64,000 nucleotides of DNA from Terriglobales bacterium (GCA_038254775.1 JBBSFV010000005.1:31076-95075); one strand, 5' to 3'; shown: positions 30,522 through 59,521, numbered from the stretch's first letter. The notes: generated by a model from the sequence alone, not told the origin. A program made the numbers and translations.

Positions 30522-30527
30522 CCGAAT

Positions 30528-30894
30528 GGGGGCGTCACGGCTTCGACGGAATCGCTTGCGGCAAAGAGGCATGTCGGGGTGCATTCACCCGAAATCGAGT
30601 GCAAAAGAAACAATTGCCGATACACAAATGGCATACGCTGCTTAATTAAATAAGTAGCCGTCCTCCGTAGCTACGCCTGCGGGTTATGGAAGGACGTCAT
30701 TAGCGGGCTGGTTCGTTGTCCTAAGCCAGGGGACAGCGGATAAGATTACGGGCTAGTCGCACGCGTTTCTTGCGGGTTCTGAGCGCGGACGGCGAACGTT
30801 GCCGGTGAAGGCCGGTAGCATGAACCTGCTAAGCATGTAGTCTCTTTGTCAGTAACTTTTTCGGACGCGGGTTCAACTCCCGCCGCCTCCACCA
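30528..30894 (+). ncRNA. ssrA: tmRNA (transfer-messenger RNA)
   Basis: The 5' end GGGGGCGTCACGGCTTCGACGG pairs with the 3' end CGCCTCC-ACCA, including the G3:U wobble. T-arm is GGGTTCAACTCCC. The tag ORF ends ...GCC GAT ACA CAA ATG GCA TAC GCT GCT TAA (ADTQMAYAA, stop 30643-30645). Confidence 0.95.
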
Positions 30895-30899
30895 ACTTA
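30871..30899 (+). repeat. attL core (GTTCAACTCCCGCCGCCTCCACCAACTTA)
   Basis: Identical 29-mer at 51670-51698, checked base by base; flanking bases differ on both sides. Confidence 0.9.
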
Positions 30900-30936
30900 A
30901 TTATTTTGTTTTCTTATATTTACAAGACATCAACAA

Positions 30937-30964
30937 ATGTTGTACCATTTCTGTACCGCTGATT
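30937..30964 (+). repeat. Arm-type repeat, left copy (ATGTTGTACCATTTCTGTACCGCTGATT)
   Basis: 26/28 identical to 51568-51595. It contains two TGTACC units 11 nt apart and lies 38 nt inside attL. Confidence 0.6.
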
Positions 30965-30985
30965 TAGGCGGCACAGAGGTGCGTC

Positions 30986-32206
30986 TTGGGCCTGTTCGTG
31001 TATACCCGCCATACCGTTGATTGCGAAAAGAAGTCCGACCGGTTCTCAAAGCGCTGTCGCTGCCCTAAATGGATTCGTGGCGTTTTGAACGGAAAACCAG
31101 TTCGTCAAAGCGCCGGCACACGAAGTTGGGAAAAAGCCGAAGACCAGCGAAGGTCTCTCGAGAATCACGCCGAGGAAGTGGAACGCGCCATCAGTGCGGG
31201 TGAGATCCCAAAGGCAAAGCAGGAATCAATCAGTATCGCGAATGCCGTCGCCCGGTTCCTAGCGAGCAAACGTAATGAGAATCTCGCGGAATCAACGCTC
31301 GACAAACTCGCAACAATCTTTTCAAAGCAGTTCTTAGGTTGGTCTACTTCAGCGGGACTGACTTTTCTCGGCGAGATCTCCACCGCTCACCTAGAAGCCC
31401 TCCGCGATACTTGGAAAGATGGCGCGCTTGCAAAAAAGAAAAAGCAAGAGCGCATCATTGGGTTCTTCTACTATGGCATGCGGCTAGGTTGGATCAAAGA
31501 GAATCCTGCAGTTCTCCTCGGTCGAATCAAGGCAGACGGTCCTCCGACCGACTACTTCCCTAAAGATGAATTCGATCACATCGTCGATACGACTCATGTC
31601 TACCAGCCTAAGGGTTGGACTGAATGTCGAAATCAAGCTACACGGCTTCGAATTCTCACGTTGCTGATGCGGTGGAGTGGTCTTGCTATTCGCGATGCGG
31701 TAACACTCGAGAGATGGCGCCTGAACGACAAGAATGAGCTCTTCCTTTATCGGGCGAAAACTGGGAATCCCGTCTACGTCCCGCTCCCCGATGGCATAGC
31801 CGAGGCATTGCGAAACATTCCTCCCGGTCCAAAGCCCAATCCTCGTTATTTCTTTTGGTCGGGTAATGGTTCACCCAAATCTCTCGTTGGAAACTGGCAA
31901 CGAAGTTTTCGTCGGCTGTTTGATCTGGCTAACATCACGCGAGAGGATGGCACTCGGAAGCGTTGTCATCCGCATATGCTTCGAGACACGTTCGCGGTTG
32001 AAATGCTTCTAGCAGGAGTACCGCTGGAGCAGGTTTCTTTACTGTTGGGACATAAGAGCGTGAAGATTACGGAGAAACATTATGCGCCATGGGTCAAAGC
32101 CCGACAGGAGCAGCTCGCTACTAATGTTCGTAAGGCTTGGGAAGTAATTGAGGCTGTCAACAAAGGATCAAAGCACAAGAAAATAGCCTCGGCCAAAAGC
32201 GCGTAG
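30986..32206 (+). CDS. Tyrosine recombinase / phage-type integrase
   Basis: Catalytic pattern GLAIRDA (R), HPHMLRDTFA (HxxR) and LLGHKSVKITEKHY (H...Y). It follows the tmRNA immediately. Confidence 0.92.
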   Translation: MGLFVYTRHTVDCEKKSDRFSKRCRCPKWIRGVLNGKPVRQSAGTRSWEKAEDQRRSLENHAEEVERAISAGEIPKAKQESISIANAVARFLASKRNENLAESTLDKLATIFSKQFLGWSTSAGLTFLGEISTAHLEALRDTWKDGALAKKKKQERIIGFFYYGMRLGWIKENPAVLLGRIKADGPPTDYFPKDEFDHIVDTTHVYQPKGWTECRNQATRLRILTLLMRWSGLAIRDAVTLERWRLNDKNELFLYRAKTGNPVYVPLPDGIAEALRNIPPGPKPNPRYFFWSGNGSPKSLVGNWQRSFRRLFDLANITREDGTRKRCHPHMLRDTFAVEMLLAGVPLEQVSLLLGHKSVKITEKHYAPWVKARQEQLATNVRKAWEVIEAVNKGSKHKKIASAKSA

Positions 32207-32212
32207 CTATCT

Positions 32213-32506
32213 TCAACTGGCCTTTCGCAGTTTACGGTGGACTCGCTGGAGGACGCTCTCTGGGATTCTCAGTGTGCGATAACCACGCTTATGCAGAGTC
32301 TCATCGCCGCCCCATTGGATAACGCCAGGCTCGTCTTCAAACATCCGACGAACCGTCTTTTCACTGAGGCACCAAAGTTTGGCGACCTCGGCTACGGAAT
32401 AGTGCTTCTCTCTTGCAAGGTCAACAGCCTGAAGCGCCGGCGCGACGACCGAACTCAACGAGCCGCCGCGAGACGACTCCACGGGCTTCCGTGCGAAGTC
32501 GGTCAT
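32213..32506 (-). CDS. Excisionase/AlpA-type helix-turn-helix DNA-binding protein
   Basis: YSVAEVAKLWCLSEKTVRRMFEDEPGV...LRIPESVLQRVHRKL, 97 aa, adjacent to the integrase. Confidence 0.75.
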   Translation of the reverse strand: MTDFARKPVESSRGGSLSSVVAPALQAVDLAREKHYSVAEVAKLWCLSEKTVRRMFEDEPGVIQWGGDETLHKRGYRTLRIPESVLQRVHRKLRKAS

Positions 32507-32532
32507 AAACTATGAACCTCAAATTTTCAGGT

Positions 32533-32551
32533 GCAGGTTCAGTGAACCTGC
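32533..32551. promoter_or_regulatory. 19-bp perfect palindrome GCAGGTTCA-G-TGAACCTGC upstream of the excisionase gene
   Basis: Perfect 9-1-9 inverted repeat about 27 nt upstream of the minus-strand xis start. Confidence 0.4.
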
Positions 32552-32757
32552 CAGAGCGACTTGAGAATAGTGCGGGAGTAGGGTGGAGTCCAAGACTTCT
32601 GGGAAATGGTGTGATAGCTGCGGTCTATCAAGGGCTCGAGTCGTGGATCGCCGACAACCCCGGCTCCTCAGCCGCTGGGACTCAAAATCGAACATTCGCC
32701 CTCTACCGCTGGTTCGAAGGCAGACGCGCCGATGTGGAAATCTAACTGGGAGGAATC

Positions 32758-32925
32758 ATGAAAGAGATCAAAGCGATCATCCAACCTTTCTTACTTTCGC
32801 ACGTTGTGCATGCTCTGCAGGAGATCCGGGATTGCCCGGCCTAACCGTGTCTCAAGTACGCGGATTCGCAGAAGCAAAGCTGCGGGATCTCCGGGAGCTT
32901 TCGAGGATCAGGGAGTGGAGTAGGT
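32758..32925 (+). pseudogene. P-II (GlnB-like) family protein remnant, frameshifted and truncated
   Basis: GGGAGGA RBS and ATG 32758, reading MKEIKAIIQPFLLSHVVHALQEI then a premature stop. The expected continuation [13 protein letters not shown] is in another frame, and the remnant is cut off by the antisense permease fragment. Confidence 0.6.
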
Positions 32926-33505
32926 AGCGATGCGCGAGAACAGCCAATGCCCTGCCATTGGCCTCCCCGCCGGCTTCAAACGCAGGGGGCTCAATCAGAA
33001 GAGTGGTCACCACACTGCTCGCAATGAGGTACACACTCATGATGAGTGCGGCGGCGAGTAGAAGCTTTTTGGCATTTCGAATCCGGTCACCACTTATGAG
33101 CGGCATCACCGCCACTCCGGTTTCAAATCCCGACCACCCGAGCGCAGGTTTGGGGAAAAGCAGAAGAGATATCCCCAGCATGGACCAAAAACTACCGTGC
33201 TGCTGCCAAAGGTGTCGCTTCCACCCGGCAATCAATTCAGGATGGCGACCCACCTCAACAACTCCCACACCGATGACCAGGGCGTTCAGGACTAAGTAAA
33301 CGGCGACCAGCACAACCGCGATTTTCACCGCCTCTTTGAAGCCCTTCAGAAAGATTGCCCCCAGAAACGCCAGAAAGATCAGGGTAAGTCCCACTTGATG
33401 GCGGAGCCAAAGCGGCACAAACGGGTTTTGAATGAGGTGAGCAGTACCATCGGCGGCTGACAGCGTGATCAGCTGACGCGAGGACCTTCGAAAGATGCCC
33501 GACAA
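32852..33505 (-). pseudogene. Internal fragment of a polytopic permease (APC/amino-acid-transporter-like)
   Basis: About 5 TM segments, including [52 protein letters not shown]...[14 protein letters not shown]. It lacks a credible N- and C-terminus, and its tail is antisense to the P-II remnant. Confidence 0.5.
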
Positions 33506-33544
33506 TAACTACGCCCAACCGGTATTTTCCCTATTACCCAATTG

Positions 33545-34418
33545 ATGCGCAATTCTCGGATTGCCCGCACATTGTTGGTGTTTTTAATGCTCACCTACAC
33601 CCTTCCAGCATTTGCGCAGCATCGACCATACTTCATCACCTATAACCATGAGATGGAGGAAGTAGGAAACCCTCGAGATTAACTCGATTAACGTGGTCGG
33701 ATCGCCGCGTCGGGGGAACACGTTCTGGGGATCCCAAGCCGAATTTGAGTATGGAGCTACTGGCTGGTGGAGCACCGCCCTATATCTCGATGGGCAGACG
33801 ACAGCCAAAGAGAGCGCCGTATTCACGGTCTACAGGTTCGAGAACCGTTTCCGCGTGCTACCAAAGGAGCACTGGATAAATCCAGTGCTGTATGTCGAGT
33901 TTGTCCACGTAAATGCGGCAGACAAATCGTTGCGTGAGATTGTCGGCCATGATGTGGAAGATGATTAAAGCGAACCGAATTCCATCACGCGCCGCGAAGT
34001 CGAGACAGAACTGGAATTGAAGCTGATTCTCTCCAGTCATTTGAAGGGCTGGAATATCTCCGAGAATTTCATCACAGAGAAGCCACTTGGGCACGAACCG
34101 TGGGAATTTGGCTACACGTTCGGCTTCAGCCGGCCGTTGGCCTTTGTACCTTCGGATAAGAAATGTTCATTTTGCAAGGAGAACATCCAGCTAGGAGCGG
34201 AATTCTATGGTGGCCTGGGAGATTCCGCAGATCTCAGCACGCACAACACGTCGCATTACATAGCACCAGTGTTTGCCTGGCAATTCGCTAAGAACACTAA
34301 TATGCGTGTCTCTCCAAGTTTTGGACTGAATGACCAGAGCCACCGCGTTCTCATGCGGTTCTCTCTTACTTATGAACTTGAGCGATTCGCTTCCAAAGTA
34401 AAGAAGGTATTCCGGTGA
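33545..34418 (+). pseudogene. Decayed paralog of the 53457-54317 secreted/outer-membrane-like protein
   Basis: Same signal peptide and the QHRPYF(I/V)TYN.EMEEVGN start. There is a +1 insertion near 33670 (AAC C CTC) and an in-frame TAA at 33966-33968. The rest is colinear (GATGWWS.ALYLDGQ, KSLREIVGHDVE, LKLILSSH.KGWN.SENFI.EKPL, LNDQSHR). Confidence 0.8.
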
Positions 34419-34815
34419 GGACGGTTATCCAAATGACGAATATATTTCTTATGATCTGCGCCATGGTGGCTGTCACCGCAATGGCAAGCGCAGATGGTGT
34501 CAAAGCAGAAAGGAGACTACTGACGCGTCAGGCACCCGCGAAGTACATTCGCATGCAGAACCCTTCTGCCAACGATGCAGAAGGATTCAAAGTGGGACAG
34601 CGGATTATATGTCGCGAAGTGCGCCCGCTGCCATGAAATGAAATGACGATGGCGAACGTCGTGGACCATCGCTGGAGGCACTCGAAATAAAAGACGCCTC
34701 ACCGGGCGCGTTGTATTGGGTTCTCGAGAAAGGGAGCAATGAAATGCCATCCTTTGCAAAGTTTCCCAGCAAGAATCGCTGGCAGGTAATCACATACCTG
34801 CAGCGCCGCCCATAA
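34415..34815 (+). pseudogene. Decayed cytochrome c (paralog of 54314-54706)
   Basis: CARCH heme motif and the tail ...SPGALYWVLEKGSNEMPSFAKFPSKNRWQVITYLQ are spread over three frames, so at least two frameshifts. The start overlaps the previous stop, as in the intact pair. Confidence 0.75.
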
Positions 34816-34887
34816 GTCTGTTCCAAGGCGTCTTCCGACGAGACCAACAAGTTCAAAGTCGCCAGCTTGGATATAATCATGCTCTAT

Positions 34888-35280
34888 ATGCGCGTGAGCG
34901 GTCGCAAATGCGTTGCTTTCTTGCTCCTACTGTGGGCGCTTTGCGATCTCACTGTACCGGGGTGGTGTGACGATCTAGTTCCCCCGATGACGCAATCGGC
35001 GATTGAAAGTTCTTCGGTTGCGGTTTCTGCAAGTACGGAGACTCCCGTCGCTCGCGACGCGGCGTCGTCGTTGCTGCCAGTGTGGAATGTATCGCACCAG
35101 GCGCCGTCCCCAGGCTTCGACGATTGCGACTGCTTCACGTGCACTGCAAGCACTCCTACACCGGTGTTTTCTCCTGCCGTGCCTTTATGGTTCACCATGG
35201 TCGAGCCGGTCCTGTCGCAAGGCCGGGAATTAGAGTTCAGCTCCATCTTTTATCACCCTCCGCGCACGCGCCTAATCTGA
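34888..35280 (+). CDS. Small Cys-rich membrane/secreted protein upstream of the ECF-sigma/czc module (possible anti-sigma or metal sensor)
   Basis: MRVSGRKCVAFLLLLWALCDLTVPGWCDD, a DDCDCFTC cluster, and a C-terminal YHPPR. No family assignment. Confidence 0.45.
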   Translation: MRVSGRKCVAFLLLLWALCDLTVPGWCDDLVPPMTQSAIESSSVAVSASTETPVARDAASSLLPVWNVSHQAPSPGFDDCDCFTCTASTPTPVFSPAVPLWFTMVEPVLSQGRELEFSSIFYHPPRTRLI

Positions 35281-35378
35281 GCGTTCTTAGTGGCAAGGAG
35301 CTACATTTCCTTTGCCTCTTGGAATTCATTTCCAGTTCTGATTACTGGAATTAACGCCTATGTGGCTAGGCAGGCGCA

Positions 35379-37298
35379 ATGTTTGCATTTCATAAGATGA
35401 GCGGGATAGAGGACCTCTATGGTCGCTGGAAATCCATTGTTTTTCGTTTCTGTCTTTTGTTTTTGGGTGATGAAGAAACAGCGAGCGATGGCACACTCCA
35501 TGCATTTCTTCAATACGCCAGAGCTTCGCAAGACTATCGCTGCCCTTGGTCTGTTCCGCCGTTGCTTCTGCGGTTTGTCGATGAAGCCGCCGTGGAACGG
35601 GTCAGCACGAGCAAGAGTTCTTCTCCATCAAGCCCGCTCGCATACGAGCTTCTTCAGCTTCCGAACGATGAGCGTGCCGTTTTCATCCTTCGGTCTGCCT
35701 TGCAATTGAGTGCTGAAAAGACTGCCAAAATCTTCGGTGTGAATGTCGAGCGCGTGCGCGAATTGTGGATTGCGTCTCTCCTTGCACTTAAGGACAGCAC
35801 TACCTGCAACGTTCCTACGAGGAGATCGAGTGCAATGAGAAGGATGATTCCGCGCGCGCCTGCTAATCCCCCTTCTGCAGAACCACTTCTTCCCAATTCG
35901 GTTCAAGCCACGGAAGGACCTTACCTTGTGAAGCGAAAGCTCATCTTTGCTGCGCTTGTATCTCTCATGGTATTCACGAGCGGCTGTACCGCCTACCGGC
36001 ACAAACCGATCGTCGACCGCCAAGTACTGCGCGAACTTCAAGTTATCCGGCTGGAGTCATTGGGGCCCGCAGCGCCTTCAATCGCCAACTCGAATGGGCT
36101 TTCGCAGCAGGATGCTGTCGCAGTGGCCTTATATCTAATCCCCTCAATCCGGTCGTTTCGCAAAGAACGCGGAATAGCTGAAGGGGAGCTGGTCTCGGCC
36201 CGGCTGCTGCCCAATCCGGAGATACAGGTAAGCATTCTGGCCACGTTGGCGAATCCAATTGCAATTGGATCGAGCGCGCTTTCCGCCGCTGTGAGTCCCT
36301 TTCGTCCCGGAGAGCGCGATGTAAGAACCGCTCGCGCACATGCCAGGATTGAAGAAGTCAGGTATCACATTTCCGCCGAGGAATGGAAACTTGCCGCCGA
36401 TGTAAAAAAGACTTACCTGACGGTGTGGGCGCTGCAAGAACAGGCAAACATTGACGAAACATCCGTCCGGCTGCAAGAACGTATTCGGAAGTTGTTTCAT
36501 GACAAAAAAGAGTTGGGTGATGCGAGCCGTCTCGACCTCAACCTTGTCAATCTTGAATATGCGCAAACCTTGCGGCAGCGCGAGGTAACTGCAGGAGCTT
36601 TAGAACGCGCAAGACAGGAATTGCGAAGGTTGTTGGGATTGCCGCCGCTCTATGACTTGGCGCTCAAAGCTGATCCCGATCCACTGGCCTACAGAGCATT
36701 CAGGTTGAATGAGAGCGATCTGGAATCGTTGATGATTGAACGCCGGCCGCAACTCGCCAGCGCCAAACAGGAATACGAACAGGCAGAACAGAATCTGAGA
36801 ATCGCTTATATCCAGCGGATTCCGTGGTTCCGCCTAGGGCCGAGTTACGAGCAGGAAAGTGGTGGAGGAGAAGGCACTACCAACCGCCTCGGGGCTGGAT
36901 TAGGTCTTGATCTTCCCATCCTCAATCACAACCAGGGGATCATTGCTTCTCAAGAGGCGCTGAGGGACAAGCTGAAAGAGGGTTTTACCGCGCAGGTGCA
37001 CTCTGCGCGCGCCGATCTGAACGAGGCTGTTCGAAATCTGCGCGCTCAGGAGAGGTTGATTCGACTTTACGAAACTTCCATTCGTCCTGCGCTGGAAGAA
37101 AATGCGGAACTTACTGAGGCTGGAATCCAAGTGGGCGAATTCAATTTGCTTCAACTGATCACTACACAAGACAAGGTTTTGAAAAGCCGCAAAGAGTTCG
37201 TAGACGCAGAATTGGAGTACTGGAAGGCTGTCATAGACCTTGAATCTGCGATTGGAGCTCCTATCACCGATATAGAAGGGCGAGGTCCAAAGCCATGA
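35379..37298 (+). CDS. ECF sigma-like N-terminal region in frame with a CzcC/TolC-family outer-membrane efflux lipoprotein
   Basis: Residues 1-145 show sigma70 region 2-like (EDLYGRWKSIVFRFCLLFLGDEETASDGTLHAFL) and region 4 HTH (LPNDERAVFILRSALQLSAEKTAKIFGVNVERVRELW) patterns. They are followed, with no stop codon, by a lipoprotein signal (VKRKLIFAALVSLMVFTSGC) and a TolC-like two-repeat body. Confidence 0.7.
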   Translation: MFAFHKMSGIEDLYGRWKSIVFRFCLLFLGDEETASDGTLHAFLQYARASQDYRCPWSVPPLLLRFVDEAAVERVSTSKSSSPSSPLAYELLQLPNDERAVFILRSALQLSAEKTAKIFGVNVERVRELWIASLLALKDSTTCNVPTRRSSAMRRMIPRAPANPPSAEPLLPNSVQATEGPYLVKRKLIFAALVSLMVFTSGCTAYRHKPIVDRQVLRELQVIRLESLGPAAPSIANSNGLSQQDAVAVALYLIPSIRSFRKERGIAEGELVSARLLPNPEIQVSILATLANPIAIGSSALSAAVSPFRPGERDVRTARAHARIEEVRYHISAEEWKLAADVKKTYLTVWALQEQANIDETSVRLQERIRKLFHDKKELGDASRLDLNLVNLEYAQTLRQREVTAGALERARQELRRLLGLPPLYDLALKADPDPLAYRAFRLNESDLESLMIERRPQLASAKQEYEQAEQNLRIAYIQRIPWFRLGPSYEQESGGGEGTTNRLGAGLGLDLPILNHNQGIIASQEALRDKLKEGFTAQVHSARADLNEAVRNLRAQERLIRLYETSIRPALEENAELTEAGIQVGEFNLLQLITTQDKVLKSRKEFVDAELEYWKAVIDLESAIGAPITDIEGRGPKP

Positions 37299-38638
37299 GC
37301 ATGAAAGAACTAGTTCCAATCGTCGCGAAGAACGAAGGCAAAAGAATGATGACCTGGATTCGCAAAAACTGGGCAGCGGCTTTGTTGGTTGTAGTGCTAG
37401 TGATTCTGGGACTCTTGTTCGCCTCGGGCAAACTTCAAATTACTCCTTCAAGCACCAGCCGTAAGGTAGAGGATGGTGCGACCAAAGCCGAAGAACCCAG
37501 TCGAGTGCAGAACGGCAAGATCATCCTCGATCAAGATGATTTCGCCTCTTCAGGGATCAAGGTTCAACCTGTCACGACACAGATGATTCCCTCCTATTTC
37601 GAAGCTCCTGCTGAAGTTCAACTTGCTGAAAGCAGGGTTGCGCATGTCACACCCGGAATTGCCGGAATCATCAGAAAGGTTGAGAGAGGTGTCGGAGACC
37701 CAGTGGCGAAAGGAAGCGCACTTTGCACGATTGAGTCAGTCGACGTCGGCGATGCACGGTCCAGCTTCGTTGCCGCAGATTCAGAAAGACAGTTAGCGGA
37801 AAGGAATTACGCACGTTGGAAGCTGCTGGTGGACAAAGGCTTGCGCACTCAGAACGAACTATTTGCGGCCGAGACTGAATTGACCCGGGCAAAACTAAAG
37901 CTCGAGGCTGCAACCGCGCGATTGCGCGGCTTGGGTGCAGGCGAGCAGCAGCTTCAAGTATTAGAGAAGTCTGGTGCCGAGGGAGTGAGCAACGGCTTTG
38001 TGCTTAGAAGCCCCATCGCCGGTTCGGTGCTCGCCCGTTCAGCTACTGTCGGACAGAACGTAACAACATTGGATCAGATTTTTCAGATCGGAGACCTCTC
38101 GAGTGTCTGGGTGCAGGCTGTCGCGCATGAACAAGATCTGCCATTGATCAAGCTCGGGATGTCCGCAGTGGTCCAGCTTCCCAACTCCGGCGCCACCTTT
38201 GCCGGCAAGGTAAGTTATATCGGCGAGCAGGTTGATGAGAAAACACGGACTGTGCCCGTACGGGTGGAAGTGAGAAACGGTTACGTCCCGGGCACCGCCT
38301 CAAAACAGCACCGCTTGCTCCCAGGACTCTTCACCACACTTCACATTGAAACTGGCAGGAAGACGAATGCCCTAGTGGTCCCTGCTTCCGCCATTCAATC
38401 GGAAGGCGCGGAAAGTTTCGTCTTTGTCCAAAGCAGCGTCCAAGTATCCGACGCAGCCGCCAAAACAAATATTAGCGGATCCAGTAATGTCGCCTTTGAG
38501 CGGCGACTGGTTGAAGTGGGAACGCACACTGGAAACCTTGTAGGAATTGTGCGCGGACTTACGGCTGGAGAAAAGATCGTTGTCGAGAATGCCTACTTGC
38601 TGAAGAGTGAACTAGAGAAATCCAAAGTACAGGACTAA
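37295..38638 (+). CDS. RND efflux periplasmic adaptor (CzcB/CusB-like membrane fusion protein)
   Basis: TM anchor, lipoyl/hairpin segments (IAGIIRKVERGVGDPVAKGSALCTIES, coiled coil, LRSPIAGSVL) and a beta-barrel tail. ATGA overlap with the upstream gene. Confidence 0.85.
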   Translation: MSMKELVPIVAKNEGKRMMTWIRKNWAAALLVVVLVILGLLFASGKLQITPSSTSRKVEDGATKAEEPSRVQNGKIILDQDDFASSGIKVQPVTTQMIPSYFEAPAEVQLAESRVAHVTPGIAGIIRKVERGVGDPVAKGSALCTIESVDVGDARSSFVAADSERQLAERNYARWKLLVDKGLRTQNELFAAETELTRAKLKLEAATARLRGLGAGEQQLQVLEKSGAEGVSNGFVLRSPIAGSVLARSATVGQNVTTLDQIFQIGDLSSVWVQAVAHEQDLPLIKLGMSAVVQLPNSGATFAGKVSYIGEQVDEKTRTVPVRVEVRNGYVPGTASKQHRLLPGLFTTLHIETGRKTNALVVPASAIQSEGAESFVFVQSSVQVSDAAAKTNISGSSNVAFERRLVEVGTHTGNLVGIVRGLTAGEKIVVENAYLLKSELEKSKVQD

Positions 38639-38647
38639 GCGAAGACA

Positions 38648-41506: not shown

Positions 41507-41525
41507 GCTTTCTCTACTTCCTGAG

Positions 41526-42667: not shown

Positions 42668-43117
42668 TGTTTTTCTCCTTTTGCCGTTTTTGGCTGTTTT
42701 GTTTCTTCACAGAAGCGCCAGCGGAACAAAACAGACGGAACGGCAAAGGAGACTGAACGGAGGCGGGAGGAGGGTGGCAGGGCGCGAGTGGCGGCGCGGT
42801 GAGTGCCAAACTGGGGTTGGGTTACGTTTGGCGCGAAACCGGCGCTTTAGCCCGAGCGACCGCCCGAGCCCTGGCTGAAGGGCGCCCACCCGGAAGAGGC
42901 CGCAGTGGGAAGAGGACGCGGAGCATACCTTGATTTGGGATCTATCTTGTGGGATTTGTTTGCAATCGCAAACTTGAGAGTTTCGCGATGAAGGCGGCTC
43001 CTGAAAAGGATAAGCCTGTCTTTTGATAGACTTAGAATCCGGCAACAAATCCGGCAAAATAAGCGGCATTCGTGGTACATTAAATCACCGTAACATGATG
43101 ATTAATAGGAATTAACC

Positions 43118-44323: not shown

Positions 44324-44375
44324 CACCGAATAGATAGATAAATGTGGTCGGATACGAGTCACCGAAACAAAGAAA

Positions 44376-44404
44376 TTGCAATCGGGAAATCTGAATTGTA
44401 TAGT
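44376..44404 (+). promoter_or_regulatory. Sigma70-type promoter TTGCAA-17-TATAGT in front of the six-gene cassette
   Basis: -35 at 44376-44381 and -10 at 44399-44404, about 24 nt upstream of ATG 44428. Confidence 0.45.
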
Positions 44405-44427
44405 TGAGGCGAATAAAAAGCGAAACT

Positions 44428-46320
44428 ATGGGTAAGCCCTTTAAATCTGAGCTCCAAAAGCTGTCTCAAACCTATGAATGGGCTTTGTGCCTCGAGAACA
44501 CGGGTCTCAAAAGACAGATAAATGCCGCTGGGTCTTATCCTCTTGTGGCCATTGGCTCTGGTGGATCCCAGAGCACGGCCGTTCTCATCTCAGATCTTCA
44601 TCAAAGCACTTTCGGCGAGGTGGCGAAGGCAGATACGCCGGTTGGCGCGTGGAATTATCTAAAAGATCTCCGGTCGAGCGCGATTCTTCTTGTTAGCGCC
44701 GGTGGAAAGAATCCTGACATTCTGGGCATTGCGCGTGCTGCAGTGGAAGCTGAGCCAAGATTGTTGATCGCAATATGCGCGACTCAGGGCTCTCCTTTGG
44801 CGCGGATTGTGAATGGATTTGCGAGAGGTTTTTGTTTCGATTTTGGGCTGCCGAGCGGCAAAGATGGCTTCCTGGCTACCAATAGCTTGCTGGCGATGAG
44901 CGTGATTGCCCTTCGCGCTTTTGGATATGACCGCGATACACTGCCCCCTTCGTTTCCATCGCGGCAGTCAATAAGCCGCAAAAACGGGTCGAAGAGGTCG
45001 CGCAAGGTCGGTGGGTTGCGCGACGTCCCGAATTTAGTGGTTCTGCATGGAGCGCACAGCAGGAGCGCGGCGTTTGACCTTGAATCGAAGTTGGTGGAGG
45101 CAGGACTAGTTTCGGTGCAGCTTGCCGACTACAGGAACTTCGCTCATGGAAGGCATCATTGGCTCGCAAAACATCCCGACTCAAGTGTGGTGGCGTTTGC
45201 GAGTAAGGAAGAAAGACTGCTCGCGGACCGAACTCTGCGACTTCTTCCTCACAATATTTCATGGCAACTCATCGCTACTCAAACGCCCGGCTATGCCTCC
45301 TGGGTTGAGCTTCAGGCAGCGGTGTTCGAATTGGTGTCAGAGTTTGGGGATGCCAAGTCCATCGATCCAGGACGGCCAGGAGTGCCGGCATTTGGTCGCC
45401 GAATCTATCACCTGAATGCTTTTCATTCCCCTAAGAAGGACTTGAGATCAACAGCCATTGCTAGGAAGAGGAAGTCATCTGGTCAAAACAATGCCGATTA
45501 TTTGCAAAAGCTTGATCTCAGTTTCTCGGAGATGTGCGCGAAGCTTCGTAATGCAAATTTTAACGGCCTCGTTCTGGACTATGACGGGACGATATGTGAT
45601 CACGTGGATAGGTTCGAAGCAATTCCTCAGATAACGGCTCGAGCGATTAGCCGAGTCGTGGAAGCTGGTTTCCTACTAGGAATAGCTACCGGTCGTGGTA
45701 AATCGGTCAGGAAAGCTTTGCAAGCCGCCATCGAAAAGAGTGCCTGGAGCCGGGTCAAGGTGGGGTATTACAACGGGGCGGTGGTGGCCGATCTTGGAGA
45801 TGATGCACAGCCAGATACCAGTTGTGGAGTCGCGCCCGGGTTGCAGGACGCAGCTGATGCCTTGAGAACGATTTGCGCGGCGTCCCAGGTTGATTTAAGT
45901 ATCCGGCCACAACAAATCACTGTGGAGCCTACGGTGCCAATGGAGGTAATGGAATTGTGGTCGCGTGTAACACAGCGCTTGGAGGAAAACGGGATAAGAG
46001 GCGTTAAGGTGGTGGCATCTACTCGGTCGGTAGACGTGGTGCTAGAAGAAACTAGTAAACTTGCGCTCGTCCGAGCGTTGGAACAGACGCGACCAAGGTC
46101 GACACTCTTGTGTATAGGTGATCGACCGTGTTGGCCCGGCAATGATGCTCAGTTACTCGGCCAAGACTTTTCTTTAAGCGTAGACGAAGTGGATGGTAAC
46201 CCATCAGGCGCATGGAATCTGTCGCCGGCTGGAGTTCTTGGGGCAGCCGCGCTGCGATATTATCTTTCCGCAATAAAAATAGGACCAAAGCATTTTTCGA
46301 TTCAGCTGAGGTGCGATTGA
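44428..46320 (+). CDS. Cassette gene A: double-SIS phosphosugar isomerase-like domain fused to a HAD-IIB phosphatase domain
   Basis: SIS 1 is VAIGSGGSQSTA...ILLVSAGGKNPDIL...LIAICATQGSPLA. SIS 2 resembles the GlmS/AgaS C-terminal half (FDLESKLVEAGLVSVQLADYRNFAHGRHHWL). HAD motifs are LVLDYDGTI, GIATGRG and CIGDRPCWPGNDAQL. Confidence 0.8.
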   Translation: MGKPFKSELQKLSQTYEWALCLENTGLKRQINAAGSYPLVAIGSGGSQSTAVLISDLHQSTFGEVAKADTPVGAWNYLKDLRSSAILLVSAGGKNPDILGIARAAVEAEPRLLIAICATQGSPLARIVNGFARGFCFDFGLPSGKDGFLATNSLLAMSVIALRAFGYDRDTLPPSFPSRQSISRKNGSKRSRKVGGLRDVPNLVVLHGAHSRSAAFDLESKLVEAGLVSVQLADYRNFAHGRHHWLAKHPDSSVVAFASKEERLLADRTLRLLPHNISWQLIATQTPGYASWVELQAAVFELVSEFGDAKSIDPGRPGVPAFGRRIYHLNAFHSPKKDLRSTAIARKRKSSGQNNADYLQKLDLSFSEMCAKLRNANFNGLVLDYDGTICDHVDRFEAIPQITARAISRVVEAGFLLGIATGRGKSVRKALQAAIEKSAWSRVKVGYYNGAVVADLGDDAQPDTSCGVAPGLQDAADALRTICAASQVDLSIRPQQITVEPTVPMEVMELWSRVTQRLEENGIRGVKVVASTRSVDVVLEETSKLALVRALEQTRPRSTLLCIGDRPCWPGNDAQLLGQDFSLSVDEVDGNPSGAWNLSPAGVLGAAALRYYLSAIKIGPKHFSIQLRCD

Positions 46321-47426
46321 AAGATCAGTTAGCGGAAGAACTCCTTGCGAGGGTGATGGGTTGGAAAGACCCAGCGGAGTTTGTGGAACATGGGCGGCCG
46401 CTTATGGCTATGTCTGCTTACAAGTATGACGAATACCAGCAGTTCTCGCCAGGAATGCGTTTCATTGAGAGTCTGGCGCTCTGGCTGGGACAATTTAAGA
46501 CGTCGGCGCAGAGGAGGGCCGCGCTGTCTTTCGTAAGGAAAAGACTGGTATTCGTGTCCGCGGCGGAAATGAATCACCTCGTGACCATTTCTTATTCAGA
46601 CCACGTTCGTCCGCTTCTGCTCTCGAAGGCTGCGGCTGAAGCCGGTTTATCGAGATGGCACATCGGGAAAGTAGCCCATAGCGTGGAATTTCGCGTGCGC
46701 GAGCGGAGGTGCCTCTTTCTCGGACTTAGCGACGGATCGCGAACTGACGTTTTTCGGCGAGCGAATCCTCATTTGCAGAATGATCAGGTGCGCCAAAGTC
46801 ACGAATTGACCACTGATCGCTCAATGGATTTGAGAAAGGAACTCGTTAAGGATCTGACGAGACTTTTGGGTCGCGCACCCACGGATGAGGAAGCGGCGTT
46901 CCGCTCAGTCGTGCTATTGGACGATTTTTCCGCAAGCGGTATTAGCTATATCCGCAAGAAAGAGGACGGCTCGTACGCTGGCAAGGTGGGCAAGTTCTTG
47001 GGCGCTCTAAGTGCCCCTTCAAATCCCTTGTCGCAGTTGTTCACGACGAAGCTTGAAGTGATTCTGGTCCTCTACATGGGTACTGACACCGCTGAACGAG
47101 GCCTTCTACAAGGGTTGTCCAACCTATGCGATCCGTCCGATTATGACGCGAATCTCATCATCATCCAACGATTTCCGGAGAGCCAGCGCGTAATACGTGG
47201 CGCAATACCGGAATTTGATGCCCTCATTGATGGGCACTACGACGATACAAATGAAACGTCGAGTACATCTCTTGGGGGTACTGATCTTAAGTACGGATTC
47301 GCAGGGGGCGCTTTGCCGCTGATCTTGGGCCACAATACTCCAAATAATTCCATCGGATTGCTCTGGGCGGAAGGTCCAAATATGGTGCCGCTGTTCCCGC
47401 GCGTTACGAGACATAAGGATCTATGA
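46311..47426 (+). CDS. Cassette gene B: phosphoribosyltransferase (PRTase)-like protein
   Basis: PRPP-loop-like VVLLDDFSASGISY in the C-terminal half; the N-terminal helical domain has no recognised family. Start is uncertain (GTG 46311, TTG 46317 as a TTGA overlap, or ATG 46356). Confidence 0.75.
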   Translation: MRLKDQLAEELLARVMGWKDPAEFVEHGRPLMAMSAYKYDEYQQFSPGMRFIESLALWLGQFKTSAQRRAALSFVRKRLVFVSAAEMNHLVTISYSDHVRPLLLSKAAAEAGLSRWHIGKVAHSVEFRVRERRCLFLGLSDGSRTDVFRRANPHLQNDQVRQSHELTTDRSMDLRKELVKDLTRLLGRAPTDEEAAFRSVVLLDDFSASGISYIRKKEDGSYAGKVGKFLGALSAPSNPLSQLFTTKLEVILVLYMGTDTAERGLLQGLSNLCDPSDYDANLIIIQRFPESQRVIRGAIPEFDALIDGHYDDTNETSSTSLGGTDLKYGFAGGALPLILGHNTPNNSIGLLWAEGPNMVPLFPRVTRHKDL

Positions 47427-49339
47427 GAGAGCCTCGAAATCCATTTCGGCTTAGGGCGTCAGAGGCCATCGAGTCCGATACCACTTTTCTGAAGCTCTTT
47501 GGGCCAGGAATGCTTGAGTTGCTCCCGACCGGGGCTCAGGTTTGGGACAAACCCCAAGTGTTCCGCAGTGCTCCCGGCGCCGGAAAGAGCTCATTGCTGC
47601 GCCTATTTACTCCCACGGTGCTGCTGACGCTTCACACCTTTCGCCGAAATGAAGATTTGAAGGAGCTGTATCAGAAGATGACTGAAATGGGCGTAGTCGA
47701 CGAGGAAGGCCCCCGCTTGTTGGGTGTCTTTCACTCTTGTGCGCGGAATTACGCCACGCTGGAAGACCTGGAATTTGATTCTGCGCGAAAAGAAAGGCTG
47801 CTATTTGGATTGCTGAATGCTCGTGTCATTCTCGCCGCGTTGCGGTCTGCCTTGGCATTACATCGGATGGATTATCCGGGAGATCTGGGCCGGATCAGTT
47901 TCAGTGTTAACGTGATTGAGGCTTTTGGAAGCAGCTTGTCCCCAAACAGCACGGGAGAGGATCTGCATCAATGGGCAACGCAACTGGAAGGAGCTGTTTG
48001 CGACGCTATTGATAGTTTTGGCGGATCGGATCTGAAGGGACTTCCCGGAAGTGACACGTTTTCGGCTCTGAGTCTGCTGCAGCGCGAGAGCTTGTTGATA
48101 GATCAGAAGCCGGTTGCAGAACATGTTCTGCTGCTGCTCGATGATGTCCATCACCTTACACATCGACAAAGAAAACGAGTCCTAAAAGTTATAGCTGAGT
48201 TAAGGACTGGGGTTGGTGTTTGGCTGGCCGAGAGATTTGAAGCGCTCAGCGCCGATGAGATGCTAGCGTCCGGCACGTCCGAAGGAAGGGACTACGAGGG
48301 AGAAATCCTGTTGGAGCGTTTTTGGAGGGAACATCCGCGTAAGTTCGAGACCCTTTTGATGAGTGTTGCCGACCGTCGCGCCAGCGCGGCGGTGAACGTT
48401 GAAGTGAGCTCGCTCGATTCGTGTTTGCAAGCATCTCTCGATGGCCCCGAATGGACAGAGAAGTATGAGTCGGCGATTCCAGTGATTCGGGATCGGGTCA
48501 CGCAGACCGTCGATAGGCGAGATCTGTTTGATGTCTGGATCGAGGCGCAGAGCGCCTCCGGAGGAACAGCGCGGGATCGCGCAATCGGTTGGCGTACGCT
48601 AGAGATTCTTGTGCATCGAGAGATTAAGCGAGAGCAAGGTTCGTTTGATTTTCCTTTAAGCGCTTCTGAGCTGACGGAACGGAGTGATTCTCAATTGAGG
48701 ACTGCGGCAGAGTTGTTCTTGGCGCAAGAGTTTCATTTGCCCTATTACTTCGGGACAAAGAAACTCGCAAGCCTTGCGTCGTGGAACATCGAGCAGTTTA
48801 TGCGACTCGCGGGAGACGAATTCGAGGAGGTTGTTTCATCTCGGACAGTGAGGCGGGCAGCAACGCTCGATGCTGGTCGGCAGGATGCGTTGCTTCGAGG
48901 CGCCTCTTCGTCTTTCTGGAGCGAGATTCCGCGCCGGGCGAGGAACGGTGAAAAGGTACTGAAGTTATTGGAATCGATCGGCCAATTCTGCCGTCAGCGG
49001 ACATACGAACCTACGGCGTCTTACGACCCAGGCGTGACGGGAATCGCGATCTCGATGCAAGATAAAGAATCTCTTCAGGATGAAGCTTTCTTACTGCGTA
49101 ATCCTCAGTATTCTATTTTGGCTGATGTCTTGGCAGCAGCGATCGCAAACAACCTGCTTGAGCCCCGCCTTGATTCTAGAGCTAAGGGCTCGAGCTGGAT
49201 GGTTCTAAATCTTAATCGGCTGCTATGCGTCACTTTGGATTTGCCGTTGGCGTACGGTGGATGGAAGGAGCAGCATCTGCGCGATCTGCATACCTGGATG
49301 ACGGCGGGCTTCAAGCCGAAACAGGCAACGCTCTTATGA
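47423..49339 (+). CDS. Cassette gene C: large ORC/Cdc6-like (STAND-like) P-loop NTPase
   Basis: Walker A SAPGAGKSSLL and Walker B VLLLLDDVHHL, with about 400 aa of unassigned helical C-terminal sequence. ATGA overlap with gene B. Confidence 0.8.
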   Translation: MREPRNPFRLRASEAIESDTTFLKLFGPGMLELLPTGAQVWDKPQVFRSAPGAGKSSLLRLFTPTVLLTLHTFRRNEDLKELYQKMTEMGVVDEEGPRLLGVFHSCARNYATLEDLEFDSARKERLLFGLLNARVILAALRSALALHRMDYPGDLGRISFSVNVIEAFGSSLSPNSTGEDLHQWATQLEGAVCDAIDSFGGSDLKGLPGSDTFSALSLLQRESLLIDQKPVAEHVLLLLDDVHHLTHRQRKRVLKVIAELRTGVGVWLAERFEALSADEMLASGTSEGRDYEGEILLERFWREHPRKFETLLMSVADRRASAAVNVEVSSLDSCLQASLDGPEWTEKYESAIPVIRDRVTQTVDRRDLFDVWIEAQSASGGTARDRAIGWRTLEILVHREIKREQGSFDFPLSASELTERSDSQLRTAAELFLAQEFHLPYYFGTKKLASLASWNIEQFMRLAGDEFEEVVSSRTVRRAATLDAGRQDALLRGASSSFWSEIPRRARNGEKVLKLLESIGQFCRQRTYEPTASYDPGVTGIAISMQDKESLQDEAFLLRNPQYSILADVLAAAIANNLLEPRLDSRAKGSSWMVLNLNRLLCVTLDLPLAYGGWKEQHLRDLHTWMTAGFKPKQATLL

Positions 49340-49956
49340 GGCGGAACCAAAAAGATCGGTGGGAGTCTTACGTTCAAGTAAGCGACGAATCGGTTTGCAG
49401 TTTTTTGCGCGAGCATCTGGGTGCCAAAGAAAAAGCAGGCAAGAGCTGTCTGATTGTCGGCAAGGGTTTCGATCCGCGAATGCTTGAGGGCTTAAAGGTT
49501 CTCCGCGGAGCATTGGATCCTGAGCAGATTTCAATCATTATGTTGGTTTTCAACGAGGGACCAACATCGCCTTCGCGCGGATATGACGAATTAGTGCGTA
49601 AGAACGTCGATGCAATGCGACAAATGGTCCCGGGCGGTGAAATCCAAGAGCGGAACATCAACATGTTTTCATCCGAGGGCCGAAGGATTACTTCGCGTTC
49701 AGCGGAATCGGCGTTTCGTTCGGTAAGCGAACTTCAGAGATTCAGAGACATTTTTGTTGATGTGAGCTCCTTGCCCCGCAGCATCTATTTTCCGGTGCTA
49801 GCGAAACTTCTTCATCTCCTAGATGGCGTCAAAGAGGCGACACCCCCGAATCTGTTTGTCTTAGTCAGTGAAAATGCCGAATTAGACCGGCGGATTATGG
49901 AAGAAGGAATCGATGAAAGATGCGGATTACATTCACCCGTTTCGAGGAGCAGTTGA
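49336..49956 (+). CDS. Cassette gene D: unknown alpha/beta (Rossmann-like) protein
   Basis: ATGA overlap with gene C. Alternating strand/helix pattern (SCLIVGKGFDPRMLEGL, IFVDVSSLPRSIYFPVLAKLL, NLFVLVSEN). No family recognised. Confidence 0.6.
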   Translation: MRRNQKDRWESYVQVSDESVCSFLREHLGAKEKAGKSCLIVGKGFDPRMLEGLKVLRGALDPEQISIIMLVFNEGPTSPSRGYDELVRKNVDAMRQMVPGGEIQERNINMFSSEGRRITSRSAESAFRSVSELQRFRDIFVDVSSLPRSIYFPVLAKLLHLLDGVKEATPPNLFVLVSENAELDRRIMEEGIDERCGLHSPVSRSS

Positions 49957-50476
49957 AAGAGAATCGGCCGCTGGCCGTCCGAAGGTCTGGTTTCCATTGT
50001 TGGGAGAGAATCAACGTGTTCAGCTCACCCGGATTTATGATTTGATTAATCCCGCGGAAATATGTCCGCTATTGCCTTCTCCGTCCAGAGACCCTCGGCG
50101 GGGAGACAACATCGTCGTTGAGTACCGGGAGCTCTTGTTTGATCAACTTCGAGTTGAGATGGGAAACTTTGTTTACGCATCCGAGACCAATGCGTTCGAG
50201 ACGTATCGGCAACTGAGGCGCGCAATTTTGCACTATGCTGACGCTCTTAAGCCATTGGGTGGATCGAATGCCGTGATTTCCGCGAATTCCAGTAAACTGC
50301 TTTCGGTCGGGGCTTTGTTGGCTGCGTATGAACTGAAGCATGAACGGGCCGACATTGCCATCGCCCATGTTGAGGCGCACGGATACGTTTTGCAGGATTC
50401 GGATAAGGATTTGGAACGCTTGGCCAGCGCCAGTACGCTTCAATGCCTCTGGCTCTCAGGGAGCTGTTATGAATAA
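49913..50476 (+). CDS. Cassette gene E: unknown protein (possibly the C-terminal half of D)
   Basis: ATG 49913 is preceded by GAAGGA and overlaps D by 44 nt. Its stop overlaps the F start (ATGAATAA). Confidence 0.6.
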   Translation: MKDADYIHPFRGAVERESAAGRPKVWFPLLGENQRVQLTRIYDLINPAEICPLLPSPSRDPRRGDNIVVEYRELLFDQLRVEMGNFVYASETNAFETYRQLRRAILHYADALKPLGGSNAVISANSSKLLSVGALLAAYELKHERADIAIAHVEAHGYVLQDSDKDLERLASASTLQCLWLSGSCYE

Positions 50477-51566
50477 GGCAAGAGAACCGCGAAAGTCGCG
50501 ATTGGTAGCAGCAGGATTTTGCGCGTTGGACATTGTTTTTGGGCTTGATGATCCTTCGCCACGGTTTTATGCGGGTGGGACGTGCGGAAATGTCGCCGCC
50601 GGCTTGGCTTTCCTTGGATGGGATACAAAACCAATCGCGCGCCTTACAAACGATGTTGCTGGCGAGTTTGTAAGGCAGGATTTGGAACGGTGGGGAGTTG
50701 ACACCAACTTTATTGCGTTGAGTCCTTCTGGCGCGACACCTATTGTGCTGGAGAAAATCCAGCTGAGCAAGAATGGCCTGCCGAAGCATCGCTTTCTGTG
50801 GAATTGTCCGGATTGCAGTTCATATTTTCCTCCGTTCAAGCCAGTCTTGCGGAACCAAGTTGAAGAGCTGAAGGGGAAATTGGGATCTCCGGAAATCTTT
50901 TACGCCGATAGAGTATCTCGGTCTACCGTTGACTTGGCGAGCTATTTTAGCGAGAAGGGATCGTTGATTTACTTTGAGCCCTCCGCGGCGGGCGATCCTA
51001 AACTGTTTCGAGAGATGTTGCAGCTTACCGATGTGTTGAAGTACTCCGCACAGCGAGCCCGTTCTTTTTCGGAGTTGCTGCGCGACCACAAAGCCTTTTT
51101 AGAAATTGAGACTCTTGGAGAAGATGGCTTGCGCTTTAGGACACGCAGGGCTTTCAATTCATGGTGTTCGGTGCCTGCGTATGAAGTGAAACTCAAAGAT
51201 ACAGCGGGGTCCGGCGATTGGACATCTATCGGCCTAATGTCCGAAATGTTGGCGGAGGGCAAGAAAGGCCTTGAGAAGGCGACGAAACGTGAAATTTCTT
51301 CGAGTTTAGAACATGCGCAAGCAGTTGCTGCGTTGAATTGCCAATTTGAAGGACCAAGAGGAGGCATGTATCAGCTTTCAAAGAGTAAATTCCTGCAATC
51401 AATAGCAGTTCTCGAACGAAGGAAGTCAGGAGCTCAGAAACAAAGAACCATTTCTTTGACGCAGCAATTAACGACATCCATTGTTTGCCCAAGTTGCGGC
51501 CCGAACCCTAATCGGAAGAGCGCTAAGGTAGAATTCGAAAGTGTTTCCGTCATCTCGAGGAGCTGA
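50469..51566 (+). CDS. Cassette gene F: PfkB/ribokinase-family kinase with CxxC insert and C-terminal CxxC
   Basis: N-terminal GGTCGNVA and the anion-hole/catalytic motif DTAGSGDW. The insert is WNCPDCSSYF and the C-terminus has VCPSCGPN. Confidence 0.8.
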   Translation: MNKAREPRKSRLVAAGFCALDIVFGLDDPSPRFYAGGTCGNVAAGLAFLGWDTKPIARLTNDVAGEFVRQDLERWGVDTNFIALSPSGATPIVLEKIQLSKNGLPKHRFLWNCPDCSSYFPPFKPVLRNQVEELKGKLGSPEIFYADRVSRSTVDLASYFSEKGSLIYFEPSAAGDPKLFREMLQLTDVLKYSAQRARSFSELLRDHKAFLEIETLGEDGLRFRTRRAFNSWCSVPAYEVKLKDTAGSGDWTSIGLMSEMLAEGKKGLEKATKREISSSLEHAQAVAALNCQFEGPRGGMYQLSKSKFLQSIAVLERRKSGAQKQRTISLTQQLTTSIVCPSCGPNPNRKSAKVEFESVSVISRS

Positions 51567-51567
51567 G

Positions 51568-51595
51568 ATGTTGTACCGTTTTTGTACCGCTGATT
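51568..51595 (+). repeat. Arm-type repeat, right copy (ATGTTGTACCGTTTTTGTACCGCTGATT)
   Basis: 26/28 identical to 30937-30964, located 74 nt inside attR. Confidence 0.6.
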
Positions 51596-51669
51596 CGGCA
51601 AACTAGGCTTTTTTGCACTTCTGGCGCTTTGTTGATTCAATAACTTACATGGAATCAATGTGGTGAATA

Positions 51670-51698
51670 GTTCAACTCCCGCCGCCTCCACCAACTTA
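51670..51698 (+). repeat. attR core (displaced copy of the tmRNA 3' end)
   Basis: Identical 29-mer to 30871-30899. Confidence 0.9.
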
Positions 51699-51717
51699 TC
51701 TGCTACGTCCAACTGAG

Positions 51718-59520: not shown

Positions 59521-59521
59521 C

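Follow-up and report, generated by a model that had tools for sequence, protein, structure and literature searches.

A genomic island with its own tyrosine integrase in the 3′ end of the ssrA gene of a Terriglobales bacterium

The present study concerns 64,000 nucleotides from a Terriglobales bacterium (GCA_038254775.1, JBBSFV010000005.1:31076-95075; hereafter the window, with positions counted from its first letter), in which the transfer-messenger RNA (tmRNA) gene ssrA is followed by a long insertion. Our analysis indicates that the segment 30900-51669 is very probably an integrative genomic island, seated in the 3′ end of ssrA and provided with its own tyrosine integrase. With its terminal repeats included, the island covers 30871-51698, a length of 20.8 kb. 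Previously, a first-pass annotation of this DNA had envisioned a mosaic-cargo island in the ssrA 3′ end with an integrase of its own, and this overall picture is supported here. Islands in ssrA are textbook biology, and the island itself is ordinary. What is new and most useful is its integration module, which for the Acidobacteriota brings together site specificity, a co-variation of arm sites with the integrase N-terminal domain (N-domain), and a conserved His/Cys cluster in that domain.

The two ends of the island have the following features.

30528 to 30894, plus strand: ssrA (tmRNA) gene, intact (ARAGORN; Rfam RF00023, 168.3 bits, model 1-374 of 374)
30871 to 30899, plus strand: attL core, an exact 29-bp repeat made up of the final 24 nt of ssrA and 5 nt more
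30937 to 30964, plus strand: putative arm-type integrase site at attL, tandem TGTACC-N5-TGTACC, 38 nt inside attL and upstream of the integrase gene
30986 to 32206, plus strand: tyrosine integrase, 406 amino acids (aa) (PF00589, 68 bits; phrog_1 integrase, E 2.7e-35)
32213 to 32506, minus strand: 97-aa helix-turn-helix (HTH) protein, convergent with the integrase gene; candidate excisionase (recombination directionality factor) or regulator (weak HTH matches, conservation)
51568 to 51595, plus strand: putative arm-type integrase site at attR, tandem TGTACC-N5-TGTACC, about 75-80 nt inside attR
51635 to 51647, plus strand: IHF-consensus-like element ATTCAATAACTTA, with one mismatch to WATCAANNNNTTR (ungapped alignment of attR regions)
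51670 to 51698, plus strand: attR core, displaced copy of the ssrA 3′ end (exact repeat; alignment with related islands)

The 29-mer GTTCAACTCCCGCCGCCTCCACCAACTTA occurs in the window as two exact copies, at 30871-30899 and 51670-51698, just as the first-pass annotation had reported. Allowing up to 3 mismatches brought no further match, and 100 shuffles gave none, the chance expectation being 0. The left copy had been taken for the 3′ end of the functional tmRNA gene, and both ARAGORN and RF00023 indeed place a full-length gene there. Its tag peptide is ADTQMAYAA, and its acceptor ends pair (5′ GGGGGCG with 3′ CGCCUCC, including a G3:U pair); therefore, the gene looks functional. Read from the left, the attL core begins with the final base of the 5′ T-stem strand and continues through the T-loop (TTCAACT), the 3′ strand of the T-stem, the acceptor strand and ACCA into ACTTA. 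The attR core is directly preceded by ATAG, as in related islands, and stands between unrelated sequence (…GGTGAATA) on its left and an EVE-domain gene on its right. The sequences flanking the two cores are unlike each other on both sides, again in agreement with the earlier description. Since a copy of the final 24 nucleotides of ssrA comes with the island, the tmRNA gene stays intact after integration. A restored full-length tmRNA together with a 29/29 repeat at both boundaries is the target-gene signature of islands in ssrA and tRNA genes. No internal remnant of the 24-nt core was detected in the island, even with 6 mismatches; thus, the island is a single unit and not a tandem array, and a tandem or composite structure is ruled out.

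The island is compositionally foreign. Its GC content of 52.5% lies 3.9 standard deviations (sd) below the genome mean of 56.9% (sd 1.14%, 20.8-kb windows), within the lowest 0.25% of genome windows. The tetranucleotide L1 distance is 0.21 versus 0.082 ± 0.019, about 6.8 sd above the genome mean, making the island the most atypical 20.8-kb window of the 3.07-Mb assembly. A 4-kb scan locates the onset of the anomaly at about 30 kb and its end at about 52 kb, both of which coincide with the repeats. The first-pass annotation had reasoned that a missing compositional break would speak against recent mobility, and the windowed scan places such a break at the repeats. It had also called the island more AT-rich than its flanks, especially at 41.5-51.6 kb. 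The AT-richness is real but modest in GC, the tetranucleotide signal being much stronger, and the emphasis on the right part does not hold, as the right and left halves have nearly the same GC content (about 52.9% and 52.8%, respectively).

A tyrosine integrase beside attL, as predicted, is encoded at 30986-32206. Its gene begins 87 nt past the attL core with a TTG codon, four bases behind GAGGTG. The catalytic residues R236, K258, H330, R333, H356 and Y366 (the full R-K-H-x-x-R-H-Y set) were located, and the protein aligns end to end with its relatives. The integrase is thus apparently intact and directly inside attL. No paralogue of it exists elsewhere in the same genome.

In a scan of one genome per species, 365 relatives of the integrase were found; counts of loci below cover the best 80. 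All of these 80 come from Terriglobia/Acidobacteriota-type metagenome-assembled genomes (MAGs) and isolates, which also marks the host of the window as a soil bacterium of the Acidobacteriaceae type. In 77 of them the integrase start follows an ssrA 3′ end at a distance of 69-352 nt, mostly about 75-150 nt; the other three are two loci cut off at that end and one with a deletion in the core. Judged from these loci, the integrase lineage is specific for this site in ssrA. Within the family, 44 of 300 species representatives, from 38 of 142 genera, have a homologue at E ≤ 1e-60, a patchy spread that is typical of a mobile element. In the genomes of twelve relatives the core is repeated downstream of ssrA, delimiting islands of 21, 34, 43, 67 and 70 kb along with short remnants. 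Several family genomes carry two to four ssrA cores, which makes ssrA a hot spot for the family. Where relatives have three or four cores, some of these are about 5 kb apart (G011:C23:823886-833849). Telmatobacter bradus (G051; C1:276951, 302386, 490190 and 3520609) has two integrase copies 3 Mb apart, one of which adjoins a core with 2 mismatches away from ssrA. The multi-core relatives represent tandem arrays, with possibly a secondary site in T. bradus.

The partner of the integrase is the convergent 97-aa HTH gene, which the first-pass annotation had named an excisionase. A gene is indeed there, and it is kept directly after the integrase gene in the same orientation in about 61 of the 80 related loci, with 50-79% identity. 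The function assigned to it is less firm, as the excisionase-type model HTH_17 scores 17.8 bits against a cut-off of 27 (E 0.004), and no PHROG match was found for the protein. We infer the excisionase role from position and conservation. Among relatives, the 21-kb island of G047, the one annotated for cargo, has a 96-aa counterpart of the HTH gene, and behind its integrase-HTH pair it carries an imuA-imuB-dnaE2 mutagenesis cassette (L138 15898-21215), which is non-phage cargo. As the cargo there differs and the pair is the same, the cargo varies and the module is conserved.

Besides the core, both island ends contain a putative arm-type site. The two sites are 28 nt each, identical at 26 of 28 positions and in the same orientation (repeat family D4), with their TGTACC units 11 nt apart. 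With both strands searched, the 3.07-Mb genome contains the pattern GTACC-N6-GTACC only twice, one occurrence at each end of the island. Most of the 80 related loci have a tandem GTAC-type motif at the place of the attL site; a strict repeat pattern recovers it in 68 of 78, and variants outside that pattern include GTATGCA…GCATGCA. At the distal end, a lineage-matched tandem motif stands 80-83 nt from the core in 7 of 7 related islands examined. The motif types among relatives are GTACCG, GTACAAT, GTACAGC and GTACCAA. Over the N-terminal 128 aa, identity to the window integrase is 64-71% in GTACC-type loci and 50-57% in GTACAAT-type loci, whereas the catalytic part is 80-86% identical in both alike. 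The motif type thus tracks the N-terminal 128 aa and not the catalytic part, as expected if the arm sites are recognised by the N-domain and the common ssrA core by the C-terminal domains. Comparative evidence argues strongly for putative arm-type sites that flank the core and would be read by the N-domain, and the N-domain and its arm sites look like modules exchanged together. Among individual loci, L079 and L080 of the GTACAAT type are as close to the window in the catalytic part (about 83% identity) as L027-L029 of the GTACC type, yet far more distant from it in the N-terminal 128 aa (about 52%), and their arm motifs differ accordingly.

The N-domain itself (residues 1-95, window 30986-31270) has the pattern R8-H9…C13…R23-C24-x-C26-P-x-W29…W48. 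Across 34-78 family members, R8, H9, R23, C24, C26 and W48 are invariant and C13 and W29 nearly so. The conserved His-Cys-Cys-Cys cluster suggests a zinc site, which we offer as a hypothesis. The AlphaFold model of the domain (pLDDT 86.7, above 90 for residues 1-60) has three beta-strands followed by a long helix. This predicted topology resembles that of known arm-binding domains, and a common fold would be a hypothetical assignment.

On the attR side, an ungapped alignment of related islands gives a constant order, namely the tandem motif, a GGC…TTTTT…GC element, AATCAATAAGTTA, and ATAG right before the core. The relatives read AATCAATAAGTTA at the place of the window's ATTCAATAACTTA, at a fixed distance of about 25-35 nt upstream of the distal core (L107-L113, L017). 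We take the IHF consensus to be WATCAANNNNTTR, which AATCAATAAGTTA fits. The attP site would be about 200 bp long, extending from the core by about 75 nt in one direction and by about 105 nt in the opposite one. In the scheme that we propose, strand exchange would take place in or just after the T-loop (TTCAACT), where it is placed because the attL/attR identity begins there, and the T-stem arms would act as core-type sites. The N-domain, with its His-Cys-Cys-Cys cluster, would bind the tandem TGTACC-N5-TGTACC sites on both sides of the core in attP. The IHF-like element would serve as a bend site between arm site and core on the attR side, and the conserved HTH protein may direct or regulate excision. 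As neither transfer nor phage genes are present, the island would need other elements for its passage from cell to cell.

The island is absent from a relative that possesses both flanks. The flanks occur in two public DNA runs only, X1 (evidently the source sample) and X2 (the relative). The X2 contigs are 400-700 nt long and about 90-92% identical to the window flanks; of the 30 bins into which each flank was divided, they cover all at 11000-30860 and 29 at 51700-64000, reaching into ssrA up to 30793 and into the EVE gene from 51720. Over the 19.9-kb interior at 31300-51200 the island was not found in X2, the only matches being spurious 40-50-nt pieces of unrelated contigs. The first-pass annotation had held that the same content at ssrA in related strains would count against mobility, and here a relative has the flanks without the island. 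In X1, the unitigs match the window at 100% identity; flank depth is 10-11.2 and island depth 8.2-10.1. One 4705-nt unitig, from 50940 to 55644, runs through the attR junction with no alternative path. At attL the unitigs break, because the ssrA 3′ end is common to many organisms in the sample (summed depth of that bin about 870).

Excision would create two diagnostic junctions. The predicted junction of the attP circle is …GGTGAATA-core-ATTATTTTG… (longer form …CAATGTGGTGAATA + 29-mer + ATTATTTTGTTTTC…), and that of the repaired attB is …GGACGCGG-core-TCTGCTACG… (longer form …TTTTTCGGACGCGG + 29-mer + TCTGCTACGTCC…). A metagenome scan with the 29-mer returned 24 loci, all from other organisms with the same tmRNA end, and no attB or attP of this species. 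Synteny gave no empty site either, because the nearest homologues of the EVE protein among 5.8 billion proteins (74-76% identical) have protein genes upstream, not ssrA, and because in other relatives, G027 excepted, 46-86 kb separate ssrA from the EVE gene, or the two are found on different contigs. In G027, which belongs to a different family, an EVE-domain gene lies 1.2 kb downstream of ssrA (C20:49385-51302), as here minus the island.

The cargo falls into two parts. Its left 12 kb comprises the following.

32852 to 33505, minus strand: amino-acid permease gene fragment (PF13520 partial, model 96-251 of 427)
33509 to 34418, plus strand: pseudogene, frameshifted and interrupted by an in-frame stop at 33966-33968 (reading frames; paralogue of the flank gene at 53457-54317)
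34642 to 34815, plus strand: C-terminal fragment of a class I c-type cytochrome (PF13442, model 23-68 of 68, 26.3 bits, just under the cut-off)
35379 to 37298, plus strand: 639-aa in-frame fusion of an ECF-sigma-like N-terminus with a TolC/CzcC-type outer-membrane factor (PF02321, Sigma70_r4; NCBIfam TolC/IhpA and sigma)
37295 to 38638, plus strand: CusB/CzcB-type membrane-fusion protein (PF16576, E 5e-42)
38648 to 41372, plus strand: CzcA/CusA-type RND pump gene, broken twice (PF00873, pieces 3-111 and 122-905 of 1021)
41153 to 41614, minus strand: inverted fragment of a second RND gene, abutting the truncated pump gene (PF00873, E 4e-6, model 178-244)
41526 to 42218, minus strand: P-loop NTPase (STAND/AAA-type), 230 aa, N-terminal module only (AAA_22, NB-ARC and nSTAND6 near threshold)
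42219 to 42455, minus strand: DUF190 C-terminal fragment (PF02641, model 31-97 of 97)
42341 to 42667, minus strand: open reading frame (ORF) with a sub-threshold ArdC N-terminal likeness (PF08401)

The left 12 kb is largely wreckage. The first-pass annotation had listed a metal-efflux module, and RND-type genes are present; the module is non-functional, with its pump broken twice, once by a frame break between 38648-39043 and 38910-41372 and once by a 3′ truncation at model position 905 of 1021. Intact relatives of this pump are about 1030 aa long and at most 52% identical. Upstream of it, sigma regions 2 and 4 run stop-free into the TolC/CzcC-type outer-membrane lipoprotein at 35379-37298, which would be either a fused gene or the product of a lost stop codon in a decaying operon. 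The DUF190 and AAA ATPase genes of the earlier list do have matches, but as fragments, the 230-aa NTPase probably so. The ArdC fragment could not be upheld: the match at 42425-42601 reaches 15.2 bits against a cut-off of 22.6 (E 0.044), and the ORF has no Pfam match at E ≤ 0.01. The pseudogene at 33509-34418 shares 69% aa identity over 133 aa with C5:84985-85383 (window 53910-54308). Its paralogue at 53457-54317 is an uncharacterised 286-aa gene in the native flank, 2 kb outside attR.

The right 8.5 kb contains six features.

43118 to 44323, plus strand: Fic-domain protein, SoFic-like; candidate AMPylase and defence gene (PF02661; PADLOC SoFic; Protein Data Bank (PDB) matches to FICD/SoFic)
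44404 to 46320, plus strand: cassette gene 1, fusion of a SIS-like phosphosugar-isomerase region with a HAD-IIB phosphatase region (Hydrolase_3; syntenic in G088 and G193)
46212 to 47426, plus strand: cassette gene 2, PRTase-CE family, phosphoribosyltransferase-like (PF24390; PADLOC retron-type PRTase_III-A)
47423 to 49339, plus strand: cassette gene 3, ORC/Cdc6-like ATPase (PF24389; homologues in 2 of 300 family genomes, 66-67% identity)
49225 to 50476, plus strand: cassette gene 4, CARF-like, split by a +1 frameshift (PADLOC CARF6 halves, model 2-175 and 174-348)
50340 to 51566, plus strand: cassette gene 5, PfkB-family sugar kinase (PF00294; PDB fructokinase, E 1e-11)

This part looks defence-like, and the island would mark where this lineage stores defence-type cargo. 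The Fic gene, already named in the first-pass annotation, matches PADLOC SoFic by sequence (E 2e-25, model 59-338 of 361) and is the only island match to a catalogued defence system in PADLOC. In the PDB, cassette gene 1 weakly matches SIS phosphosugar isomerases (E 1e-4) as well as a HAD protein. The cassette had been counted as six genes; it is present, but with five, one of them split by a frameshift. A six-gene cassette that includes Fic is ruled out, as the relatives have five genes without Fic, and the former genes D and E are one gene. The five-gene cassette, without Fic, integrase or ssrA nearby, occurs in 2 of 300 family genomes (G088 and G193) at 42-67% identity. The frameshift in the CARF-like gene consists of one extra base in GAAAGA near 49915 (49910-49920); in G088 the gene reads through as one frame of 380 codons, and in G193 both halves are collinear without a change of frame. 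The split could be a true pseudogene or a homopolymer assembly error. Our literature search found no paper describing a PRTase-CE/ORC-Cdc6-like cassette. At 49294-49295, a second X1 contig (depth 12 of 22) has 3 inserted nucleotides (A + GG), suggesting that the soil also harbours a variant or a related element.

Several observations weigh against the reading as an integrative island. Mobility had been described as recent in the first-pass annotation, and this qualifier finds no backing, as neither an attP nor an empty attB junction was seen among the X1 unitigs (about 10x depth, rare variants dropped). No X2 contig joins ssrA to the right flank, because the X2 contigs are too short, and the empty site is thus deduced and not read. 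More distant relatives do not keep ssrA and the EVE gene next to each other, and the genomes compared include none of the same genus. Foldseek with the N-domain model gave no PDB match (best E 1.7), the HTH protein scores under the Pfam thresholds of excisionase-type models, and much of the cargo is pseudogenised, which fits long residence. A joining, during assembly, of an island from another soil acidobacterium through the conserved ssrA 3′ end would accord with the high summed depth and the unitig breaks at attL, and with a composition unlike the rest of the MAG. However, the attR junction passes through the EVE gene within one unitig, island depth is close to flank depth, both flanks occur together in X2 at similar identity and depth, and two matching arm sites with two cores make a complete, self-consistent element. 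We consider such a chimera very improbable. Unlikely, though less remote, is that the segment is a prophage or integrative and conjugative element (ICE) stripped of structural or transfer genes and not a simple cargo island. The sub-threshold ArdC-N-like ORF and the rearranged fragments in the middle of the island could be read in this way, as could the distant relatives of the integrase, which include that of the Tunturiibacter phage Tunturi_4 (34.5% identity) and those of IMG/VR contigs or predicted proviruses (up to 55%). Tunturi_4 has been described (PMC11924767). These relatives indicate that the wider family also serves temperate phages. No deposited phage integrase exceeds 34.5% identity to the present lineage. 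Against a stripped phage or ICE, PHROGs match the integrase only, and Pfam detects no capsid, terminase, tail, lysis or replication gene, so that the island does not qualify as a prophage. Pfam and NCBIfam scans of all ORFs of at least 60 aa found no relaxase, coupling protein or type IV secretion system, and the island does not qualify as an ICE. The G047 island, with the same module, likewise has non-phage cargo.

A weightier alternative accepts the insertion as described but regards the island as now fixed, an immobile remnant whose repeats are identical through little elapsed time or chance. We give it an appreciable chance, though short of even. The twice-broken RND pump, the fragments of permease, cytochrome c, DUF190 and NTPase genes, and the frameshift in the CARF-like gene are in keeping with it; so is an island depth close to that of the flanks, and so is the lack of attP/attB junctions in the source-run unitigs. 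This lack of junctions, along with the decayed cargo, also speaks against recent activity. Nevertheless, the recombination module is intact. The integrase retains its full length, a plausible start and every catalytic residue, its HTH partner gene is likewise intact, the arm motifs are kept at both ends, and the attR core is 29/29 identical although it lies outside any gene and under no coding constraint. Besides, some of the cargo fragments may have been broken already at acquisition.

Returning to an integrative island with its own integrase, a wider proposal can be made, which we advance tentatively. The island would exemplify an undescribed, widespread, ssrA-specific module of Acidobacteriota, in which a zinc-type N-domain reads GTAC-type arms, N-domain and arms are swapped as a unit, and the catalytic domain and core are kept; in addition, it would carry an uncatalogued five-gene mobile conflict system present in about 1% of family genomes. 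The literature searched contained no paper on ssrA islands in Acidobacteria and no published description of this integrase family. The module is compact, comprising the integrase, the 97-aa HTH gene, an attP of about 200 bp, a known core, and candidate arm and bend sites, and it is found in about 15% of the family's species. Acidobacteriota are an abundant soil phylum that is hard to manipulate genetically, and the module could become a site-specific integration vector. The natural co-variation of N-domain and arm sites offers a ready test of how arm-site specificity is encoded.

Known examples of islands in ssrA include CP4-57 of E. coli and VPI of Vibrio cholerae, and Williams' surveys reportedly covered tRNA and tmRNA integration sites. 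In contrast to islands of the CP4-57/VPI type, the host here belongs to the Acidobacteriota/Terriglobia, a conserved His/Cys cluster is found in the N-domain, and tandem GTAC-type arm sites co-vary with that domain. In the lambda system, Int with its arm-binding N-domain acts together with IHF and Xis. The present layout resembles it in the putative arm sites on both sides of the core in attP, the IHF-like element between arm and core, the small HTH partner gene, and the three-strand-plus-helix N-domain of the AlphaFold model. It differs in having one tandem arm-repeat pair per side and a putative zinc cluster. The N-domain has no sequence or Foldseek match to lambda or Tn916 Int.

Pipolins (PMC11551731) are similar as integrative elements with direct repeats at a tRNA or tmRNA gene and defence-type cargo; the present island is without PolB or other hallmark gene, and its cassette is uncatalogued and frameshifted. 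That islands and prophages integrate in the ssrA 3′ end, bounded on the far side by a direct repeat, is well established (PMC3146451), and the same publication describes the ssrA-specific genomic islands of Dehalococcoides. These share with the present island and its relatives a family specificity for the single-copy ssrA, direct repeats of the 20-bp class and tandem arrays downstream of ssrA, as well as a conserved integration module beside attL, variable cargo and no self-transfer genes, in the manner of an integrative and mobilizable element. Their module consists of six genes on the reverse strand with a CcrB-like serine recombinase, DsiB, whereas here a tyrosine recombinase is accompanied by one small HTH gene. 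The Dehalococcoides islands are thus the closest described analogue at the family level, to which the present island is analogous without being a member.

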